Source: Schmidtea polychroa (taxonomy: Eukaryota). Taken from it: DNA of 64,000 nt. Of the stretch, positions 49,801-64,000 are shown piece after piece. The number at the start of each line of letters is the position of its first letter. Position 1 is the stretch's first letter. The stretch lies in the NCBI GenBank assembly GCA_044892525.1, contig CM097885.1, positions 14,446,001 through 14,510,000 on the forward strand. The letters are read 5' to 3'. A model generated the notes under the pieces. It saw only the letters and a list, made by a program, of their open reading frames with translations, did no database searches and had not been told where the DNA came from. The translations under genes were made by a program, and so were the position numbers.

Positions 49801-50025
49801 ATCAATTTATAACTTTACATTCAGATTTTATAGATTCATATTAAAAGCTTTTTCTATATCTATATTTTAAGTTTTTAAATAAATACCTTAAAAATTAATG
49901 TTTTTTACTATTTCAATTATCAAAATATTTAATTTTGCAATAATTTAATTTCTTTTAATAATATGTACTATGGTATCAACGATTACTAAATTTCAATTAA
50001 TGAAATTTTAGTTTTTGACATTTAG

Positions 50026-50716
50026 GGATAAATTTTCAATATTAACATTTCAAATGGTTGAAAAAATTATCAAAGATTTAAGGTTATCAAATTTAGGAGG
50101 GCGAAGACTTAGAGATTCCAAATGTTTATTTTACATGGATGAAAATTGCGGCCCAAATGACATTGAAGCGTATAAAATTCAAGAAATGAAGAGGAAAAGT
50201 AGGACAAATTTGGGTCGAAACTATTACAACAAAGCTTTTATAAATAAAGTTAATGAAGAAGATTTTTACAAAGTTAATCATTTGAAAGAAAATCGTTTAC
50301 CACAACCATATAGAGATTATGAAAGTTTTGTTAATCCAATCTCACATTTTCTAACACCAGGCTACAACAAAGCCAATCATCGAGGAATTAATCCCGTTAA
50401 AATAGCATCATTTAATGAAGAAACCCCTCAAAATACTGATCCAAAGGTTTTTAATACTATAAAAATTAAAGTTTGTAGAATATAAATAATCTAGGAAATT
50501 AACTCCAATCGAATAAATTGTCCAAATGTTTTTGAGGAGTTGAATCGCAAAAGTGAATTCGATCCAACATCCCTCACTTATCATAATAAAATTAAAACTG
50601 TTGATGCTTGTCGAGCTAGTCTTAGAGCTAAAGAGAAACTAAAAATCACAAATGCATTACTAGCTCAACAAGACAACAGAAAGAAAACTTTCATTTCTAA
50701 TGCTTTTCCTGAATTT
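50026..50716 (+). CDS. Two internal exons of an unidentified host gene
   Basis: Exons 50026-50446 and 50495-50716 joined by a 48-bp GT-AG phase-0 intron that keeps the frame; strong donor GTAAGT at 50717. The product is not recognised. Confidence 0.7.
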
Positions 50717-51645: not shown

Positions 51646-51750
51646 TTTTTCTTTTTTTTTACATTTTTTACATTTTTTTTACATTTTTTATTTATTTACA
51701 TTTTCCTTTGCGCCTAAAAGTTTTGAATTTGAAGTACAAATTCTTAATAT

Positions 51751-52787
51751 TGTTAGGGATAGGCCTGGAGCCTTATTGACAAAATAAATAAAAATTACTA
51801 AAATTAGAAATAGCATAAATAAAAATAATAAAGTATTACCGAAAATAAAAGATAGGTTTTATTAATTACTATTAATAGAATTAAGTAGCATATAGGAATA
51901 TTTGATAATACTATTACTATATATAGTAATTATAAAATTGCTATTAATATAATAAATAATTAAAATATAATATAAATACTGGTTCAAAACGAGAACCAAG
52001 GGGGACGATAAAACATTGAGACAACAATTTGGACGATAAATTGTAGAGACTAATTTGGGAAATTATTTAATTATCATTTTAAAGAAGACGTGATTAAAGA
52101 ATCACTGTGTTTGTCAAAATTAATTCAAGGAATTTGTCAACAGTTCAAATTAAATTTAAATATTTCATCGCACCAGACGAAATTCCGATTCAAATTTCAG
52201 ATCGATTTCAAAGTTGAAAATTTGCTATAAATTGCCAAACAAAATAAACAAGAGGCAGTAAGAAAATCTCTAGAGAAAAATTGGAACAGATTTGTGAACG
52301 AAAAACAGGAAAGGAACCATTAATTTAGACAAGGTAAAAGGAGTTCATTATTTGTGTTGTGTAAGGATAAATTATTATCCTTGTGAAGTGAATTAATTAA
52401 GCGAACACAAAGCACCGATAGCGGCTTTCGTGTTACCTGGTAGCCCCAAAATCAGCCCTCTTTCTTTACCGTCATCTTTCCAATTTATTTAGCGATCGTT
52501 GTGCTACACAGGAGCCATCGATCTCTTGCAGGCTGTGGTAAACAGTAAGGATTAATAAATCCGTTTTCTTGTATTCTTTGCACATATATTATAAATTCCT
52601 GTTGTAAATTATTAAATACATTTTTATAAAAAGAGAAAGGAGTTTGTTTTAATTCAGTGATTTAAACTTACACTTCGCAACCACATTAAATATAACATAT
52701 TTATATTTATTTGTATTTATTTATCTTAATTAAATTATTGGAGTCATTTGTGTTAAGATCTGTAGTCCCCGTTTTTCGATCTTAACA
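51751..52787 (+). repeat. 5' LTR, 1037 bp (TG...CA)
   Basis: Starts TGTTAG and ends TTAACA, directly followed by the PBS. TATAAATA at about 51971 and AATAAA at 52554. The first 492 nt match 63509-64000 with 2 differences. Confidence 0.96.
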
Positions 52788-52790
52788 TTT

Positions 52791-52808
52791 TGGTGAGACC
52801 GACGTGAT
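52791..52808 (+). other. Primer binding site, tRNA-Trp
   Basis: TGGTGAGACCGACGTGAT is complementary to a tRNA 3' end ATCACGTCGGTCTCACCA; vertebrate tRNA-Trp ends ATCACGTCGGGGTCACCA. Confidence 0.85.
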
Positions 52809-52925
52809 CTAATTTACGGGGGGAATAAGAATTTTATTTATAAAAGACAAACCACTTTTTGAATCATTGAGTTAAGAAATAGGAGAGTAATAAATTTTAG
52901 ACCAGATAATAGAAATCAGCAAATA

Positions 52926-54245
52926 ATGGCAGAGATAAATAATTTACAAAATCTAAACGAGAATAATTTACAAAATAATAATGTGCCAATAGCTCAACCA
53001 CCAGCGGTAGATTTTATGAGATACCCAACAATTCCGATTAAACCATTTAGTGGAAACCCAGGGGAGTTTCCGGAATTTATGTCCGAATATTTTCAGTTAG
53101 CCAGAGCATTAGGATTCCCGGAACCGGTAATGATTTTGAGATTACCTTTATATTTAAAAGGGATGGCGCGGGAAATATATAACGATGTTATAATAGCCGA
53201 GCATCTAGTTGAATGGAATGTATTGCGATTAGCGTTACAAAACAGAATATTACCGTGGGATGCAACTAGAGTGCTAAGACAACAGTTTTATAACAGGCGA
53301 CAAAATTCGGGTGAGCATGTTGGGGAATTTCCATATCAAATAATGATGTTGGCATAGAGAGCATTTGGCAATAGGGCAGCCTGGAATGATGCAACTAGAG
53401 CATTAGTGAAAGATCAGTTTTGGTCAGGGTTATCGTCAGCAATGAGAAATGCACTCAGTTTACAAATAGGAGATAATTTAGAGGAATTAACTCGCAAAGC
53501 GTGTTTAATTGAAAGTAGCATTGAAAAGTCAAATAATTTTGCAATTAGTAGCAATAAGTTAGACATTGAGTGTTTTAATTGTCATAAAAAGGGACATATG
53601 TCAAAAGATTGTAAAAGTAGGAATAATTCTCCAGGGGACAAATTGTGTACCAAGTGTGGGAGAAATAATCATGTGGCATCAAACTGTAGAATTTCGGACC
53701 TAAATTGTGAGAAATACAAGCGCAAGGGACATGTAGCGTCAGTTTGTAAAGCTAGTTTTGGGGGGAATAATTCAAATAATAACAATAATAGAAATAGAAG
53801 CCCCGATAGGAATTTTCCTGGTAATAATAATAATAATTTTCAGAGTAGAAATAATAATTTTAATAATAATATTAAAAGGGATGAAGTAAATTCGGGGGGT
53901 AAAATTAAATGTCATAAGTGTGGAAAATTTGGTCATATTATGCGTTCATGTCCACAAAATCAGTTATCTAATAGCAATGGTAGTAGTAACAATCATAATA
54001 ATCGACCAAAGCAGACAACGTTTGCAGTAAATTCAGATCATAAATTAACGTATTTGCAGCAGCTTGAATTAGAAATTCAAGAAGAGAGAAACAGGTTAGC
54101 AAGGCTAACTACAAATGAAACCGATGGGTACGATGAAAATGAAGTTGTTTATATGACGTCAGCCAGAAAAAGGCGAAATAAAAATAATTATATAGAACTT
54201 GAAGTGTTGATGCTTCAAGAGAGTCCACGAGAGGACAAAAAGTAA
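52926..54245 (+). CDS. gag: Gag (capsid-like domain + four zinc knuckles), one internal TAG
   Basis: ORFs 52926-53357 and 53406-54245 share a frame. Knuckles CFNCHKKGHMSKDC, CTKCGRNNHVASNC, CEKYKRKGHVASVC (degenerate) and CHKCGKFGHIMRSC. Confidence 0.9.
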
Positions 54246-54554
54246 AAGACTATGGTCATAGAACCAGAGGTCTGTGAGGGTTTACAGGTTTCACCCAGGA
54301 AAAATCTAGTGGCTATGGTCATGGAGCCAGAAGCCAACAGAGAAATAGAAGGTTTACCGGTTTCACCAGTTAAAAATCGTAAGGCTATGGACATGGATCC
54401 AGTAGCTAATGAAATTGTTCCAACAGAAGTTTTGGAAAAAAGATGGGCTTCGGTCAATGAGCCGGAAGTTCTTATAACCACATCATCCATACGAGGTGAG
54501 TGCGGTAGTGAACCAATAAAGGTTAGAGAAGCATCGAAAGAGGAAAGAAATCCT

Positions 54555-56138
54555 ATGTGGTAACAGTCGAGGATTACACAGTTGATCGAGTACGAAGGAA
54601 CTTTCGAAGTATCCACGGGGAAAATGATGTCTCACCCAGAATGCAACGTGAAATATGGTTATTGTAAAACTAGTTTGGCAGTATTAACGTACCAATCAAT
54701 GAGAGATTTTTGTGATTTAGGATACTTGAAAAAGGTAGTATTTTCAAGGCTAGATGGGAAAAGCTTTACGTCTCAGGATTCACAACAAAGTGGTTGGAGA
54801 GACAAGATAGCTCACCAAACGAAAAAGGAAGTAGTACCGGAGAAAAGCACAGCAGTAGTATTAGTCTCCAAGGACCCAACAGATGCAATTCGTTTAGTCA
54901 GAAAGAAACAGACGACAAAATGTGGTGTACTAATATTTGAAACCAACTACAAGGGAATATACTTAGCATACAAATATGTTCCAGCAGCTGAATCATTACA
55001 TCTATCAGATATTAAAATAGCCAAGTATATCAATAATAAGATTGATTTCTTATATCATGATCTGCAGAAACAATTATTAGATGTGTATCAGGAAGTGATC
55101 CTGAACGACTGTCGTTTAAATCGGGAAATAATACGGAATAGATTAGCAATATCGATAGCTAATCCGGATTTAATAATGCCAATGTTGACAGAGGAAGGAA
55201 CATTTGGTAGAATTTTGAGTGAAGCAATTTATAGCTACCAGTGTAAAGCAATAGAGGTGGAAATTACCAAATATGATCGATGTACATTGGAGCTACCTGT
55301 GAAATATAAAGGAAAATTGAGATTCCTGATGCCAGTATCACACCAGTTATTAAAGGAGGATACCTCACCATTAACAGCAATTTGAAATCCAGCAATGTCG
55401 CCATTATACAAAATCAACAATATTTGGATTTCGTTGCCAGACAGGAAGCCGCCTTCAAAACCAGTTGAAGTGCTTCAAGCGACAAAGTTAGAAACTAAAA
55501 TGGAGTTTCAACCATTAAACGAGATGTCAAAAGGCGGAGTATATACTCCAGAAGATATTGAAGAAGCTCGGAGAGCAATTGTATTTCCCCAAATCAGAGA
55601 TCGGGGAGTGACAGAAATAATAACAAGAATCTATCAATCATATGATGGAAAACCGGACTATAATCTATTATTTGGACCAGAACATTACAAACAAGCTGCA
55701 TCAAATGTAATACGGAAAATCTGGGGTAGATTTAGAAGCTTCGGCATTTTTGTAGCAGGATGTTCAGGTATATATGCAATAGTGATGATTTTGAAAATAA
55801 TCATATCGCAATTGTTTTCCACCTATAGTATCTTCAAGATCGGGGGATGGTCTTGGAAGTTGCTACTAGGAATGTGTCCAGTTTGTGCAGACTTTGCAGT
55901 ATTTCATCATCATAATAAAGAAATTAAAAGAATGAAGAGACAAACTATAAAGAAGCATGAGTTAATAATGTATGAACCTAGTCATCGAGACGATGACAAT
56001 TCTGACGAGGGAGGTAACCTAGAGGGCTATGAGACCTCAGACAACACCTCAATAAAACCAGACAACAAAAAACCGAAATTTCAAAATTTTGAAAATAGTA
56101 CTTTACAACAGTACCCTGTTAAAGCAAAAAGGAGGTAA
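54555..56138 (+). CDS. env: Env-like class III fusion glycoprotein (chuvirus/Mononegavirales-like G), N-terminally incomplete, with internal stops
   Basis: ECNVKYGYC, KYINNKIDFLYHDLQKQ...DCRLNREIIRN, GRILSEAIYSYQCKAIEV...CTLELPV.Y...FL.P.S..L and GGVYTPEDIEEARRAIVFP follow the pattern of retroelement-captured chuviral glycoproteins. TM segment at about 55740-55817. Confidence 0.8.
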
Positions 56139-56363
56139 CGGCAGGAGTGGCCTGTGAATTATTTGTCACCATACGAGGGTAGAAAAAAGATAATACCAGA
56201 ACGAGTCGAAGAGGAAATGCTAAAGAGGTTCGAGTTCAGAACAAATACAGATATATTACCATCTACCTCATACCCAACGTATAAAATGAAGTTCGAGACA
56301 ATGCCACCCTTGGGTACATCAGTATTAGAGATGGTACCGAAATATCCATTTAGCACGTTTTAA

Positions 56364-59300
56364 CGGCTAAAGGAAGAGTATAAAGATGAAATAAAATCAG
56401 AAAATGACAAAGATAGTGATGATCAACAAAAGTTCAGAGATAATATCAGAGGAATCTCAACAATATTAATGGTCAATATGGGTAAAAAGACTCATAAACC
56501 TACGATTAAATTAAAAGTTAACAGGCATACGGTACATGCCATTATTGATTCAGGATCAGATTTGACATTGATCGAAGCAAATTTTTTAAATGAAAAAGAA
56601 TTACAAGCAATAGTGCCGACATTAACCATGGCATCGGGAGCAAATGGACAACCTATCAAAGTTATCGGAACATTAGATTGTGAATTAAGGTTGTGCGATC
56701 AAAAATTTAGACACGATATCAAGGTCACTAGACAATGTATGGCAGATTGTATCGTGGGAATGGATATATTGAAAAAGTTAAAAGATATTGTATTCGATTG
56801 TGCAACAGGTGAATTAGTGAAAATGACGGGTAGAAAACGGAAAACCTACAGTGTGGATGTAGTGTTTTTGGATAGAGCGGTGACAATACCACCGAGGACC
56901 GAAACAGTTTGTTTTGTAGCAACACACCAAGAGGTGGAAGGAGATGTTATTTTCGAACCGAGTGAAAAGTTCGTAAAAAGGTATAAAACTCCTATGGTGC
57001 AAAACTTGGCAACAGTACGGGGAGGAAGGATCCCGATTAAATTAACGAATCTAGCGAGCAAATCATTGAGATTATACCCAGAGACTAGAGTGGGTAAAGT
57101 GATACAACTATCTAACATGCAGAAAGACTCCGAATCGATATTATCAGTAGAAGAGGATGAACGAGATCCTGATAACGAATATTACGACGCACCGAGCTGC
57201 GATAGTAAAGCTTTATCTAGAAAAGAAAATATCAGAGTTAATCAATTGTTAAGGAAATATGACCAAGTTTTCGCAAAACACGAATATGACTTAGGGCAAG
57301 TTAATATTTTAGAGCATGAAATTAAACTAACAGAAAATAAACCGATAAAAATACGCCCATATAGAATACCTCAAAGTATACAAGGGTCCGTAGATAAACA
57401 AATCAAATTAATGCAAAAATATAATATAATCAGACCCAGTAAATCTCCTTATTCCTCACCATTGGTGATTGTAGCTAAAAGAGACGGCTCAGTTAGATTA
57501 TGCAATGATTATAGGAAATTAAATGAACAAACAGTTAGTGATAATCACCCGCTACCTTTGCTAGACTACATTTATGATAAAATGAAAAATTCAAAGTTAT
57601 TTACTGTGATGGATGCACAGAAAGGTTTTTATCAAATAAAGATGAGCGAAGACTCAATTCCTATGACAGGATTTTCCACAAGTAGCGATCATTTCGAATA
57701 TTTAGAAATGCCGTTTGGATTAAAAGGAGCCCCTCCAACTTTTCAGAGGGCAATGAATATCATGTTGATAGATGCACATCACGCAATGGTATATATAGAC
57801 GATATTATCATCTTCTCGGAAGATTTGGATAAACATTTGGAACATCTTGAAGACATTTTCAAAAGATTGATTATGGCAAATCTGAAAGTAAAGCCAAGCA
57901 AATGCAAATGGGCAGAATCGGAAGTGATTTACGTAGGGCATGTAATATCACACGATTGCGTAAGACCAGATCCGGCAAACACGGATAAAGTAAAGAATTT
58001 CCCACAACCAGTGAATGTGAAACAAATCAAAGGATTTTTAGGGTTGACGGGATATTACCGGAAATTTATACGAAATATTTCATCAATTGCTTTTCCTCTA
58101 ACTACCTTAGAAAAGAAAGGTATAAAATTTTTATGGGGAGAAGATCAGCAACAGGCATTTGATAAGTCAAAAGATGCACTATGCAAACCACCAATTCTAC
58201 GATTTCCAGACTTTAAAAGACAATTCATGGTGATGACCGATGCATGCACAAGAGGTATAAGTGCAGTTTTGGGACAGAAAGACGAAATTGGTGATGAGTA
58301 CGCAGTAGCATATGCAAGTCGTGGATTGAAGCCACACGAAAAAAGTTATGCTGTAATAGAATTGGAAGCATTAGCGTTAGTGTTTGCAGTGGAAATATTT
58401 AGTCATTACCTATGGGGCAGAAAGGTAATTTTCTATACGGATCATAGACCATTGCAATGGCTGTTAAAACATAGAGACGAAGCATCAAAATTAGTAAGAT
58501 GGGCATTGAGATTACAGCCATATAATATCGAAATTGTATATCGTAAAGGTAAAGCTAATGGTAACGCAGATGCATTATCACGAATGGAGCAAGAGCCTGG
58601 GTTAGAAGATATAAAGGAAAGAAGATTAGAAGGAACAATCTTCATGATAACAAGAGAGGCTAACACTTTGAGCGATTTAGTAGAAGCACAGAAAAATGAT
58701 GACGAAATTAATATGATCAGACAAGCTATAGAAGTAAAGGCCATACCAAATGAATTCCAGAAATATTGGGAGAAACATAAAGTTAAATTCATATTGGAAG
58801 AAGGTCTAATCAAATACGTGGAATCAAGAGATAATGTAATATTAGTGCCAAAGAAATATAGAGAATCACTATTATTACAATACCACAATGGAGCACTGGG
58901 AGGACATCTCTCAGCTAGACATACACTGTCAAGATTGAAAATGAAATACTTTTGGCCAGATATGAAAGATGATGTTAAAAAGTGGTGTCAATCGTGTAAG
59001 ATATGTATAACCAGAAGGAACACAGGCAGGAAACCACATGTTCCATTGAAACCAATGCCAGTACCGTCCTCGCCAATGGAGATGACTGCTATGGACGTTC
59101 TAGGGCCGTTTAAAGAATCGAAGATGGGAATTAAATTTATCATAGTATTTCGCGACTACTTAACGAAGTGGCCCGAAGCATTCCCAATTCCGAATCATAA
59201 GGCAGACACAATTGCCCGAATCTTTGTAGAACAAATTGTATTTAGATATGGTGTTCCAACCAAATTGCTTACTGACAGAGGAAAAGATTTCATGAGTAAT

Positions 59301-60896
59301 TTGTTAAAGCGTATAAACGATTACTTTGGTATTTTAAAGTTAAATACTTCACCATACCACCCACAGACAGATGGATTGGTAGAAAGGTTCAATGGAACCT
59401 TGGCAAACATGTTATCATCATACGTAAACTCAGGTCAGACGGACTGGGATGTACACATACCATCATGTTTGTTTGCGTATAGAAATGCGGTTCATTCAGT
59501 AACAGGAGAAACACCTTTCTATCTGATGTATTTAAGGCATAGCAAGATGCCGGTGGATCTTATATTTTATCCGAAAGCTTCACAGAATTGTGATGAAGGA
59601 AATTACTTATTCGAGATGAGAGAGAGAATGCAAGAAGCCTGGGAGAAAGCAGGTTTGAACATTCGTTATCACCAAGAAACAATGAAGGAATATCATGATC
59701 GTAAGGCAAAGGATCATGGGTTTTTGGTAGGAGATTATGTCATGTTAGAGGGACATTACAACAAAAAAGGTTTATCTCCAAAATTAATGAGAAATTACAA
59801 AGGGCCGTATCAAATTTTGAAAGTCACAGAAACCAATTTAGTCTTGCAGTTAGTGGCAAACAGAAAAGCAGAACCGATAATGGTTCATGCAAACAGATGT
59901 AAAAAGATAGCACCGCCAGAAAAGGAGAAACCAAAATCCGATATTGATGAATTCGAAATAGATAAGAAATCGAAAAAGAAAACATTAGAATCATATAAAA
60001 GTATCCTAAAGGGACAACCAGAACGATACCCTCTACGATCCCGGCAAATCCCGAAAACAGTTACATTTCTAGCTGTGATTAGTTGTGTTATGATGATTGG
60101 ACAAGCATTCAAGGTATTTACACCAAAAGCCAGTCAACATCCAGATATCGAATATCAACGAACACATAGAGCATTCAGATTTCATTTAACGAATATACAG
60201 TGGCACAGATATGATCTATATTTGGTAGCTGCTGAAAAAGGGATATCATTTCACTTGAATACATGGGATCGAGTAAAAGTAATAGAGGGACTTATGCCGA
60301 ATACAAGTTATCTATTAGAAATCAAGACATTTTTTGCTGACCCAAACGTTTTTGCAGACGGCGGAGATTGTGTAGATAAAGCAGCATGGATTTTGAAGAC
60401 TGCAAAATTTACCAAAAAAGTAGAGATTTCATATCTCGGGCAGATAGTAAGATTTACTCACCTACGATGGAACAGAAATGATACATCTTCCACCCACGAT
60501 TGGAGGACGAATAATAAAATTACGCTTATCGTCATATTAGAAAACAACCAGCGAGTCGAGAGATTAGTGCTCAACCATGCGTATCTAAGTAGAAGATGGA
60601 AAATCAAAACAGATACCGTGACCAAGGCGAATATTTCGTATTTGGAATTTACGGAGAGAACAGGTTGGTATACAATATACCAAGAAATAGTAAATCTAAT
60701 ACCTCCCACAAAGGGGGAACTAACTAGCAAAGAAGGAAAGGCTAGATTAGTGAATATTCCTGGTTGTAAAGGAATAAATGCTTTGGATTGGTTTAGTATT
60801 AGAAAGGTAGCGAGTGAAAAACAGCCCCGCATAAATAAATTAATTAATAATTGTAGTTGTCAAAATACAGTAAAGAGGACAACGGGTTATTTTTAA
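56364..60896 (+). CDS. pol: Pol (protease, RT, RNase H, integrase) with a 283-aa C-terminal extension; frame fully open
   Basis: IIDSGS (PR), YIDDII (RT), TDAC / ELEALA / TDHRPL / NADALSR (RH), H..GGH...C..C, MDVLGP / TDRG / VERFN (IN), GPY motif. Open from 56364; first ATG at 56469. Confidence 0.97.
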   Translation, partial: RLKEEYKDEIKSENDKDSDDQQKFRDNIRGISTILMVNMGKKTHKPTIKLKVNRHTVHAIIDSGSDLTLIEANFLNEKELQAIVPTLTMASGANGQPIKVIGTLDCELRLCDQKFRHDIKVTRQCMADCIVGMDILKKLKDIVFDCATGELVKMTGRKRKTYSVDVVFLDRAVTIPPRTETVCFVATHQEVEGDVIFEPSEKFVKRYKTPMVQNLATVRGGRIPIKLTNLASKSLRLYPETRVGKVIQLSNMQKDSESILSVEEDERDPDNEYYDAPSCDSKALSRKENIRVNQLLRKYDQVFAKHEYDLGQVNILEHEIKLTENKPIKIRPYRIPQSIQGSVDKQIKLMQKYNIIRPSKSPYSSPLVIVAKRDGSVRLCNDYRKLNEQTVSDNHPLPLLDYIYDKMKNSKLFTVMDAQKGFYQIKMSEDSIPMTGFSTSSDHFEYLEMPFGLKGAPPTFQRAMNIMLIDAHHAMVYIDDIIIFSEDLDKHLEHLEDIFKRLIMANLKVKPSKCKWAESEVIYVGHVISHDCVRPDPANTDKVKNFPQPVNVKQIKGFLGLTGYYRKFIRNISSIAFPLTTLEKKGIKFLWGEDQQQAFDKSKDALCKPPILRFPDFKRQFMVMTDACTRGISAVLGQKDEIGDEYAVAYASRGLKPHEKSYAVIELEALALVFAVEIFSHYLWGRKVIFYTDHRPLQWLLKHRDEASKLVRWALRLQPYNIEIVYRKGKANGNADALSRMEQEPGLEDIKERRLEGTIFMITREANTLSDLVEAQKNDDEINMIRQAIEVKAIPNEFQKYWEKHKVKFILEEGLIKYVESRDNVILVPKKYRESLLLQYHNGALGGHLSARHTLSRLKMKYFWPDMKDDVKKWCQSCKICITRRNTGRKPHVPLKPMPVPSSPMEMTAMDVLGPFKESKMGIKFIIVFRDYLTKWPEAFPIPNHKADTIARIFVEQIVFRYGVPTKLLTDRGKDFMSNLLKRINDYFGILKLNTSPYHPQTDGLVERFNGTLANMLSSYVNSGQTDWDVHIPSCLFAYRNAVHSVTGETPFYLMYLRHSKMPVDLIFYPKASQNCDEGNYLFEMRERMQEAWEKAGLNIRYHQETMKEYHDRKAKDHGFLVGDYVMLEGHYNKKGLSPKLMRNYKGPYQILKVTETNLVLQLVANRKAEPIMVHANRCKKIAPPEKEKPKSDIDEFEIDKKSKKKTLESYKSILKGQPERYPLRSRQIPKTVTFLAVISCVMMIGQAFKVFTPKASQHPDIEYQRTHRAFRFHLTNIQWHRYDLYLVAAEKGISFHLNTWDRVKVIEGLMPNTSYLLEIKTFFADPNVFADGGDCVDKAAWILKTAKFTKKVEISYLGQIVRFTHLRWNRNDTSSTHDWRTNNKITLIVILENNQRVERLVLNHAYLSRRWKIKTDTVTKANISYLEFTERTGWYTIYQEIVNLIPPTKGELTSKEGKARLVNIPGCKGINALDWFSIRKVASEKQPRINKLINNCSCQNTVKRTTGYF

Positions 60897-61215
60897 TTAT
60901 GATAGGGGGAGTAATATGCATGATTTTAATTTTAATATTAACTACCCTATGGATGTTTAGATTAAATATACGGGATATTCGTTATTGGGAAATTATTTAC
61001 GAAACCGAGGTATAGGGGGAAAATCTCACCATATACTAGGAAGTGTAAATATATATAGTTATTTATTTTATATGTTATTTATATTAGTATGTAAACTAAT
61101 GTGGGCTCAAATGAGCATTGGTAAAATCAGACATCAACGTATGCCGATTTTGGTTACCCTGCGAGGGTCTATCACGAAAGTGATAAAAGCTGTTAATTAT
61201 TTTATTTTTAGAAAA

Positions 61216-63275
61216 ATGAGTTATAATAGAGAACCAAAGCCACCAGTCAAAGCAAATCGACGACACCCATTGGCAACGTACAATTCCCAGACTCGAGTTG
61301 AAACTGAAGTGTATAGCACCTATGAAGAAGAGTATGTATATCGGTTCATCGGAACCACGGTCGCATCAAAAATGAATCACCTCACCTCAAACTATTGGTA
61401 TTATCCCAGGAGAGTGGATATTCCAAATGACTTCAAATTCCCAGGAGGGCCTCGAAGGCAAATGATGATAACGGTTATAAATAACCAAGGTAGATTAAAA
61501 TTGGCGGAACTATGTAGGGAGTATGGTTCATGTCCGAAATTGGAAAATATTTGATCCATGGCTTCACTGTGTTTATGGCGGGATTAGAGTTACCTGTTGA
61601 ATTAGAAAAACAGTGTACTCTGGAGATATACCACGCTGATGGACGAGAACAGAATATTATGATCCAGGCAGCGGCAGTGGATACCATAATCGCAGTAGAA
61701 ATCTTAGACTTCAGGAAGCCATACTCTATAGTTAGCAAAAACGAGCCAACTTGGATTTATAATGTAAATGAAGCTGATATACAGCAGTGTAAATCATTTG
61801 TGAGGAAGAAGTTAACCAAAGCCGAGGAGGACGAGGCTACAATTTTCATATCGGCAGGTTTTGCCAAATCCCGATTAGAACTGAAGGAGACAATTATCCA
61901 AATCGCAATTATGGATGTGAGGGGAAACAATTTATTGAGTGCGGTAGTGACTCCTAGAGACCCTGTAAAACACTACCAAACCCACCAATACAAGTTAAAA
62001 GAACCCGATATTAGAGGAAACCTCGACGAAGATGATTGTTATCATCTGATAAGAAAGATTTGTGATAAGAAAATACTTGTGGGTATTTTACTTAAAGATC
62101 TAATCTCGGTAGCCAATCTACCAGTGCAGCGAATATTGGGTATCCGTGACCTTTCTGCAAATAAACTATTGGAAACCAGAGGAGTCCCAAAGATTCATGG
62201 TCATTACAGATTGGGATTCCTGACAAAGACTTTCCTACGTACGGTTCCCGGAGAGCCAAGGAATTTAGTGGTCACCAATGAGGCACTGGCGATACGTGCG
62301 GTTTATTTACATATCAGAAACGAATGGTTAGACCATATCACGATACCTCAGGAGGAATTCATTTCCGCCACTACAGCAGCGATAGTTGAACAGGAAATGA
62401 CGCAAAAGAGGAGATTACGCGAGCAACCATCTACATCAGGGCAACCCCAGCCTAAGAGAAAATCACCTGTAGATCTACCACCGCCTCCAGCTATATCTAT
62501 TGGAGAAGAAGATGAATATGAAACATGTGCTAGTGAAATGGAGACAGCAAAATCACCTAAACATCCATCAGGAGCTGCCTATCAGCCAAAGGATAAATCG
62601 GATAATGCGGTCAGAAAAGAAAATCCAGAAGGAGGCAAGGTGAAAAAGATGTTAAAGAAAATTTTACCCATAAAAAGAGACAAGTCGAAGCTAAAGTTGA
62701 AGAAAGTTGTTAAACCATCGGAAGGAACGACAAAAGAGACACCCAGTAGTATGGAAGATAAGAATAATAAACCTCAAAAGATATTCAGCGAACCTGATGA
62801 TGACATTATGGAAGTTGCCTTTCAACCTTCGGTTAAGGAGATGCAGGAAGCAATAAAGGTTAAATCTGAACCTGTGGTAAGGCAGAAATTGTTAAAGATT
62901 GCCAAGGAGAATATCATCAAGAAACCAGTTTCGGTTGATGTGGACGGTTTCGAACCAATGTGGTACAAACGTCCGGATAGTAAATGGAAACCCAGAGCTA
63001 AGGAGTATGACTGCCAACCAGTCACGAGAATAGCAGTCAATAATAATCAAAAATATGATGTTTATGACGTAGACGGGATCCCTTACGTGGTCTCTACAGT
63101 CATATTAACGAGTGCTCTGGATGGTAAGCCTTTGGCAGTGAGCTTTGAGCCAGAAGTCTTACAGAAGAGGAAAAAGAAGTTGCTGCAGCAATATGTCGTT
63201 GCAAATAGCTACAGCACGAAGGAGTTGCACCTTTACAAAGTTCCAGACCCAGATCCCGATGATCTGGATATCTAA
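61216..63275 (+). CDS. Accessory ORF3 with a DEDDh (REX4/ISG20-like) exonuclease-fold domain lacking catalytic residues; one frameshift
   Basis: MSYNREP... (ATG 61216) joins ORF 61530-63275 through a 1-nt shift at about 61517-61519. The segment 61839-62327 has IAIMDVRG...V.P...V..Y.T, KILVG...KDL, IRDLS and EALAIRAVY. Confidence 0.7.
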
Positions 63276-63495
63276 TCCAAGAGCGTTGCCACCCAACATG
63301 TGTCGCCGAATTCCAAATGTGTATAAAATGACTTAACTATTATTTGATTTGTGCTATTCAGTGTTTTGACATTTATTATTTGTGATCTGAAACATTCATC
63401 TTGTGTTATTTGATTAATTTTTATGTTTTTATTGTAATGCTGTTTACCAAAAGCCTTTCTTGCTTTTTGTCTTGTTTTCGAGACGAAAATCTTTT

Positions 63496-63508
63496 AGGGG
63501 GTAAGACT
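63496..63508 (+). other. Polypurine tract
   Basis: AGGGGGTAAGACT immediately before the 3' LTR TG at 63509. Confidence 0.85.
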
Positions 63509-64000
63509 TGTTAGGGATAGGCCTGGAGCCTTATTGACAAAATAAATAAAAATTACTAAAATTAGAAATAGCATAAATAAAAATAATAAAGTATTACCGA
63601 AAATAAAAGATAGGTTTTATTAATTACTATTAATAGAATTAAGTAGCATATAGGAATATTTGATAATACTATTACTATATATAGTAATTATAAAATTGCT
63701 ATTAATATAATAAATAATTAAAATATAATATAAATACTGGTTCAAAACGAGAACCAAGGGGGACGATAAAACATTGAGACAACAATTTGGACGATAAATT
63801 GTAGAGAATAATTTGGGAAATTATTTAATTATCATTTTAAAGAAGACGTGATTAAAGAATCACTGTGTATGTCAAAATTAATTCAAGGAATTTGTCAACA
63901 GTTCAAATTAAATTTAAATATTTCATCGCACCAGACGAAATTCCGATTCAAATTTCAGATCGATTTCAAAGTTGAAAATTTGCTATAAATTGCCAAACAA
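63509..64000 (+). repeat. 3' LTR (truncated by the window end)
   Basis: 490/492 identical to 51751-52242. Confidence 0.97.

Follow-up and report, generated by a model that had tools for sequence, protein, structure and literature searches.

ORF3 of an env-carrying Ty3/gypsy element in the planarian Schmidtea polychroa encodes an ISG20/REX4-type DEDDh nuclease domain, as identified by profile and predicted structure, in which the catalytic residues have been replaced. This catalytic loss is not the decay of one copy; it is common to the family of elements to which the copy belongs (family A) and, as judged from substitution ratios, the dead domain is under strong purifying selection. The nuclease-like domain is preceded by a second predicted enzyme fold that also lacks its catalytic residues. 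Because both catalytic sets are absent and the protein is conserved by selection, binding rather than cutting is likely, and a function for ORF3 in aiding the element against host control, as a binding protein without catalysis, is, in our assessment, somewhat probable.

The element was identified in a 64,000-nucleotide stretch of contig CM097885.1 (assembly GCA_044892525.1, forward-strand positions 14,446,001 to 14,510,000), hereafter the window, in which all unprefixed positions are given. By its terminal repeats and coding modules it is a Ty3/gypsy LTR element with env between gag and pol, which begins at 51751 and ends 545 bases outside the window (Table 1). The two LTRs show 7 mismatches (99.3% identity), and a 4 bp target duplication (ATAT) lies at 51747-51750 and again 3' of the 3' LTR. 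The primer-binding site is presumably tRNA-Trp-like. The domain order in pol is PR-RT-RH-IN. Just upstream of the env remnant, approximately 2.4 kb that are present in sibling elements are absent. In the siblings, gag, env, and pol occupy a single frame of >3200 codons (PF24664, E 7e-82), and ORF3 is a separate frame 3' of pol, outside the gag-env-pol polyprotein. Past the integrase, at 60050-60896, pol carries a hydrophobic stretch and an additional domain of ~250 residues, for which there was no significant Pfam match; this C-terminal extension of pol is only 24-27% identical in family D, another element family of the same genome.

ORF3 has 690 residues, of which the nuclease-like domain forms the middle part. 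The nuclease-like motifs lie where the first-pass annotation had placed them, in a 585-codon plus-strand frame at 61518-63275. Upstream of this domain, the frame of the window copy is broken by a short deletion, and the window copy itself, read as it stands, probably makes no full ORF3 protein. A 775-codon open frame is common to 11 family-A loci. For the conserved C-terminal region of ORF3, there was no clear match among the outside homologues described below. The AG that precedes the ORF3 start codon is a possible splice acceptor, judging from its T-rich context; among the splice joints listed, which derive from contigs only, none leads into this acceptor.

Table 1. Features of the element and of ORF3 in the window.
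Feature	Position	Strand	Basis or remark
5' LTR	51751..52787	+	1037 bp, TG...CA ends
Primer-binding site	52791..52808	+	Sequence
gag with CCHC knuckles	52863..54245	+	Pfam; stop codons in frame (53355, 54243)
env remnant, Monjiviricetes (gB-type) fusion protein	54564..56138	+	PF24664, E 2.5e-25 and 5.1e-28; in-frame stops
pol (protease, RT, RNase H, integrase) and C-terminal extension	56364..60896	+	Pfam
T-rich tract, AG, and ORF3 ATG (61216)	61200..61218	+	Sequence
ORF3 N-terminal domain, predicted 2OG-Fe(II) oxygenase fold without HxD/E...H	61261..61715	+	Predicted structure; frame broken near 61550-61565
G-R-E motif	61641..61649	+	Invariant in 6/6 dead-clade lineages
ISG20/REX4-like DEDDh domain, catalytic positions replaced	61836..62339	+	Profile, predicted fold, alignment
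Variable low-complexity ORF3 linker	62340..62921	+	56-58% identity between subfamilies
Conserved ORF3 C-terminal region	62922..63275	+	dN/dS ~0.04; motif common to family D
Polypurine tract	63496..63506	+	Sequence
3' LTR	63509..64000	+	Runs 545 bases past window end

Expression of ORF3 at the RNA level is weakly suggested by contigs of one of five presumed-RNA runs (X1), which cover ORF3 at low depth and are assignable to no single copy. That run X1 contains RNA follows from a contig spliced over the 48-base GT..AG intron (50445-50492) of a neighboring gene. Run X6 touched 4 of 30 bins, and the interior of the element was left uncovered by contigs of X7, X8, and X9. The neighboring gene itself, at 50001-50716, is expressed, its intron being spliced in contigs of three runs; it has no clear Pfam match.

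The first-pass annotation had recognized an ISG20/REX4 DEDDh fold at 61839..62327 from motif spacing, and this assignment is borne out by profile comparison and structure prediction. The window ORF3 protein alone gave no exonuclease match in Pfam and 0 matches to PDB sequences, and a word-based protein search with a family-A protein returned 5761 candidates, none at E 0.001. Matches to PF00929 (RNase T) in the same genome numbered 39, and 38 of these belong to relatives of ORF3, matched by the window domain or by one of its sister families (best phmmer E 1e-18); we take the remaining one to be a host ERI-1-type nuclease. Between the relatives and the window domain, the alignment needs just two gaps of one residue each (hhalign probability 97.9), and the motif of the relatives, where intact, is D-x-E, GHD-x-x-x-E, H-x-x-x-x-D. 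A profile built from 57 members of the family matched ISG20L2 (E 2.8e-31), ISG20 (2.8e-18), and SDN1 (1.9e-15), with the motifs lining up with theirs. An AlphaFold2 model of the first 386 residues of a sibling (domain 98% identical to that of the window), built on an alignment that includes intact homologues, reached a pLDDT of 92.3 and contains the RNase T/DnaQ-like fold. Residues 212-379 of this model superimpose on ISG20 with Z 17.6 (rmsd 3.2, 162 aligned; next row Z 14.7), and the top Foldseek match is ISG20L2 (E 4.5e-7). Fold and profile match are shared with ISG20/ISG20L2 (REX4-like), SDN1 and Pan2 being close as well; unlike ISG20/ISG20L2, the ORF3 domain has lost four of its five catalytic residues and carries E in place of D as the remaining one, is fused to an oxygenase fold, and is encoded by an element. 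A homodimer prediction returned a score of 0.00 with the alignment not used and the fold uncertain, and this score is uninformative either way.

In the window copy, the ExoI D and E are replaced by S (61851) and G (61857), the ExoII acid (D/E) by L (62100), the general-base His by L (62265), and the ExoIII D by E (62280). An additional Asp, that of the 'GHD' motif, which all 25 of the 25 intact rows retain, is L in the window (62088). The 'GH' His does not belong to the five catalytic residues and varies among intact rows. The first-pass annotation had read the ExoI and ExoIII acids correctly, and the loss of catalysis that it proposed is real; however, the general-base column holds L, the N that it reported lying one residue earlier, and it had overlooked the ExoII acid. 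It had also passed over the oxygenase-fold domain upstream, the intact sister families, and the frameshift of this copy. A search of the same genome for family A gave 1088 candidates, of which 150 were scored (64 spanning nearly the whole domain) and 49 of these 150 loci were read. At the ExoI D column, S is present in 48 loci and L in one, and D in 0 of 49. The ExoI E is retained in 1 of 48 covered loci, which is a decayed copy (L070). L occupies the ExoII column in all 48 covered loci and the ExoIII His column in all 45, and E occupies the ExoIII D column in all 45. Thus the siblings share the loss, which the annotation had left to a comparison across copies to distinguish from decay of this copy alone. 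Dead rows mostly retain the residues that intact rows retain, and the role of these residues may be purely structural. The 150 scored matches include 68 units of a tandem array (L076; G000:C3:106.49-106.52 Mb and 107.05-107.22 Mb), with a ~2.9 kb unit that carries a frameshifted family-A ORF3.

The constraint on the dead domain was assessed between two subfamilies of family A (A1 and A2), at which 69% of synonymous sites differ, yet the domain is 89% identical. Domain dN/dS is 0.027-0.037 at dS 1.7-2.1, values that are rough because dS is near saturation and the seven pairings involve the same two lineages. pN/pS is 0.09 (0.05-0.14), vs. 0.19 (0.13-0.25) in an intact pair that has diverged to a similar extent; a nuclease row for C1/C2, calculated over a wrong range of 346 codons, was left out. 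A1 and A2 elements are mosaics (window 52800-63500 compared with L105, L106, L109, and L110): nucleotide identity is 92-98% in gag and the RT core, 78-92% in most of env, protease, and integrase, and 66-80% in the 3' module with ORF3, the most diverged part. From this pattern, we describe A1 and A2 as what appear to be two old 3' alleles on a recombining chassis. LTR stretches of four family-A siblings differ at 0-2 bases over 261-1076 compared, and these near-identical LTRs indicate that recent spread needed no nuclease activity of the own element.

ORF3 was present in all four element families examined in the genome. Family D, found at 62 further places (18 read), has A, H, L, L, and D at the catalytic positions; its domain is 43-48% identical to that of family A, and its RT-RNase H 74% identical. 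Families B and C keep D-E-E-H-D, family C having at least 150 matches at 87% or more (4 of 150 read). RT identity is 86-87% between B and C, and 54-57% between each of A and D and these two families. On these figures, ORF3 follows pol. A and D form one branch (SH-aLRT 97), and both being dead on that branch, the catalytic loss predates the A/D split. In a family-C copy with an internal deletion, which occurs twice (L154/L155), part of pol runs straight into ORF3. Low-copy ORF3 relatives with open frames of 1182 and 591 codons were found at L152 (G000:C1:207.07 Mb) and L156/L157 (C1:206.88 and 206.98 Mb). By eye, these retain only the ExoI Asp; there was no gag or env match within 10-19 kb upstream, and downstream of L152 lies an unrelated pol. 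They are possible host-retained stand-alone genes.

A search of 1.84 billion protein representatives gave 59 hits, two of which were dropped as spurious (P0019 and P0055). Of the 57 outside homologues that remained, 23 keep all five residues and 23 lose at least three; of the fragments, seven lose none and four are missing one or two. Because a dead sequence served as the query, the dead share is inflated. Scans of metagenome and viral contigs found no relatives of the ORF3 family. Four outside dead proteins fall together with families A and D (SH-aLRT 93). The trees, of 45, 38, and 39 rows with sufficient coverage, were quick, without an outgroup, and accompanied by long-branch warnings. They need four changes of intact/dead state, but a single dead clade is not rejected (p-AU 0.49).

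ORF3 residues 16-171, present across the family, are predicted to adopt the 2OG-Fe(II) oxygenase (AlkB/prolyl hydroxylase) fold, with a double-stranded beta-helix core and flanking elements in the model. Its matches to ALKBH1 (Z 11.1, rmsd 3.3, 140 aligned) and P4H (Z 10.8) are tied, with 140-150 residues aligned; the Z gap between AlkB and prolyl hydroxylase is <1, and Foldseek weakly favors PHD2 (E 4e-4). Vaccinia C16 is also a structural neighbor (Z 8.9). C16 is an inactive hydroxylase fold used as a binder. Near strand II, as numbered from the secondary structure of the model, HxD/E is present in only 1 of 42 rows, which makes the domain metal-less whether the member is intact or dead. In the dead clade, the domain has invariant residues that are particular to it, among them the G-R-E motif, each residue of which occurs in at most 10% of 21 intact rows. 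The ratio of N-terminal to nuclease domain identity is 0.84 in the dead clade, vs. a maximum of 0.78 among 2000 sets of six intact rows drawn at random; ten other dead rows give 0.87, with lower identity in both domains. The high ratio in the dead clade can equally be explained by a relaxed nuclease domain.

The layout of the element has been published; the literature searched holds no account of the two-domain ORF3 or of its dead lineage. An env between gag and pol is known from planarian Burro elements (PMC6431247), and GAG-ENV-POL errantiviruses of the gB type from flatworms (PMC13524379). Taken by itself, this Burro-like layout points to a planarian host rather than a rotifer or nematode. 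As far as the available parts of these sources describe them, Burro/GYPSM1 and the gB-type errantiviruses share with the present element an env in frame between gag and pol and a mononegavirus-like fusion protein, and those parts name no exonuclease ORF for planarian env-carrying elements. Like Burro, family B (L081 and L094) has, between gag and env, a domain resembling ubiquitin (E 1.9e-6) together with a weak match to Bcl-2 (E 0.004); unlike Burro proper, as portrayed in the same excerpts, the element is ~15 kb rather than >30 kb, and there was no Pfam hit to the Burro cargo domains MATH, BIR, or ankyrin in the 3213 polyprotein residues scanned. The literature consulted contains no DEDDh or oxygenase-fold ORF for planarian LTR elements; Jurka 2007 or Repbase may annotate it.

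Exonuclease ORFs in retroelements have a precedent in bdelloid rotifers, as the first-pass annotation had stated: the LTR retrotransposons Juno and Vesta, and Terminons, carry an ORF3 encoding an exonuclease, of the DEDDy type and intact (PMC5408684). The annotation had also named nematodes, of which this source makes no mention. The accessible text of the paper indicates that the likeness extends to an exonuclease-fold ORF after pol, and intact sisters here also read DEED at ExoII. In contrast to the RNase D-like DEDDy domains described there, the planarian ORF3 is of the DEDDh/ISG20 type and two-domain, includes dead lineages, and occurs in elements that keep env; the intact sisters carry the DEDDh His, and the top matches are ISG20-type, not RNase D-like DEDDy. 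A 2OG-oxygenase fold as an extra ORF of a Gypsy element is reported from Phalaenopsis, in which, according to the part of the source available, an AlkB-type 2-ODD close to plant ALKBH is an active m6A demethylase (PMC9289625); by comparison with that account, the fold here lacks the metal triad and is joined to a nuclease fold. Folds of enzymes that persist in the absence of catalysis are also exemplified by Exuperantia (Z 10.6) and vaccinia C16, and, in the excerpted text of PMC5408684, by Maelstrom and EXD1, inactive nuclease folds used as binders. ORF3 differs from Exuperantia, EXD1, Maelstrom, and C16 in subfamilies and partner domains, and no membership is claimed.

For the binding function that we favor, the ancestor would have been an active ISG20L2/REX4-type RNA exonuclease fused to a degenerate oxygenase fold. 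One lineage would have lost catalysis and kept the two-domain module as a rigid binding platform. Binding would occur on surfaces outside the old pocket, with the G-R-E loop of the N-terminal domain and the conserved C-terminal region as candidates, and the target may be a host silencing or stress-response component, or the RNP of the element itself. Surfaces outside the pocket are favored because the pocket holds leucines, the charge is like that of intact sisters, and the 3' module is the most diverged. This bears on the proposal of the first-pass annotation that the pseudonuclease binds RNA or acts as a decoy, by which the old active site would hold RNA 3' ends (of element RNA or piRNAs), shielding them from host nucleases or competing with these. 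The catalytic residues are indeed gone, the closest folds are RNA 3'-end enzymes (ISG20, ISG20L2, SDN1, and Pan2), the exonuclease-dead ISG20 mutant D154G is described in the available part of its source as retaining antiviral activity (PMC7756014), and the domain has a pI of 9.3. However, the columns of the GHD Asp, the ExoII acid, and the His are all Leu, and the intact sisters are similar in pI (7.9-9.1) and charge (K+R minus D+E of +1 to +5, vs. +6 in the window domain), which argues against the old site as a holder of RNA 3' ends. The pocket changes also remove a substrate-contact position; RNA binding is not favored on sequence grounds, and we rate an RNA-end decoy as rather unlikely.

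Of comparable standing, and also unlikely, is a structural or chaperone role in the particle or replication complex of the element rather than in host defense, with nuclease activity supplied by the host or by families B and C. Inheritance with pol over long times, presence in every element family examined, and a constraint like that of env and protease (dN/dS 0.034 vs. 0.033 and 0.045) would all suit such a role, but the placement of ORF3 in a frame of its own after pol, outside the polyprotein, does not, and the divergence of the 3' module between subfamilies (66-80% nucleotide identity, vs. 95-97% in gag and the RT core) is that expected of a host-facing gene. Nuclease activity retained through a non-canonical mechanism is highly unlikely for this domain. 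Some Maelstrom domains are atypical nucleases without the DEDD pentad, according to the consulted portion of PMC7968707, and in family A an E stands at ExoIII and a D immediately precedes the ExoII position; there is, however, no alternative residue set across the dead clade, in which ExoI (S/A/V) and ExoIII (E/D/M) vary, and no Cys/His tetrad among the conserved columns. We give scarcely any credence to ORF3 as a decayed, functionless passenger. ORF3 of the window copy does carry a frameshift, and stops and a deletion mark the element around it; against this stand dN/dS of ~0.03 at dS 1.7-2.1, the same losses in family D (44% identical), and the many open frames. Decay at the family level is ruled out by the low dN/dS and the family-D losses, and holds for the window copy only.

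A broader proposal, which we put forward as doubtful, is that enveloped planarian retroelements carry an undescribed counter-defense family combining an oxygenase fold with an ISG20-type nuclease, in two forms. The active form would trim host small RNAs or element RNA, and the old double-pseudoenzyme would block a host silencing or sensing complex by binding, as poxvirus C16/C4 do; the host might perhaps have retained some dead copies as stand-alone genes. To our knowledge, the accessory genes of invertebrate endogenous retroviruses are mostly uncharacterized, and we know of few animal transposon-encoded suppressors of host silencing. Within one genome and in the same slot of the element, high-copy families with intact motifs (B and C) occur alongside high-copy dead families (A and D), which constitutes a natural comparison. 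Comparing A/D with B/C separates the role of the fold from that of catalysis, in an animal group in which RNAi and piRNA work are routine.
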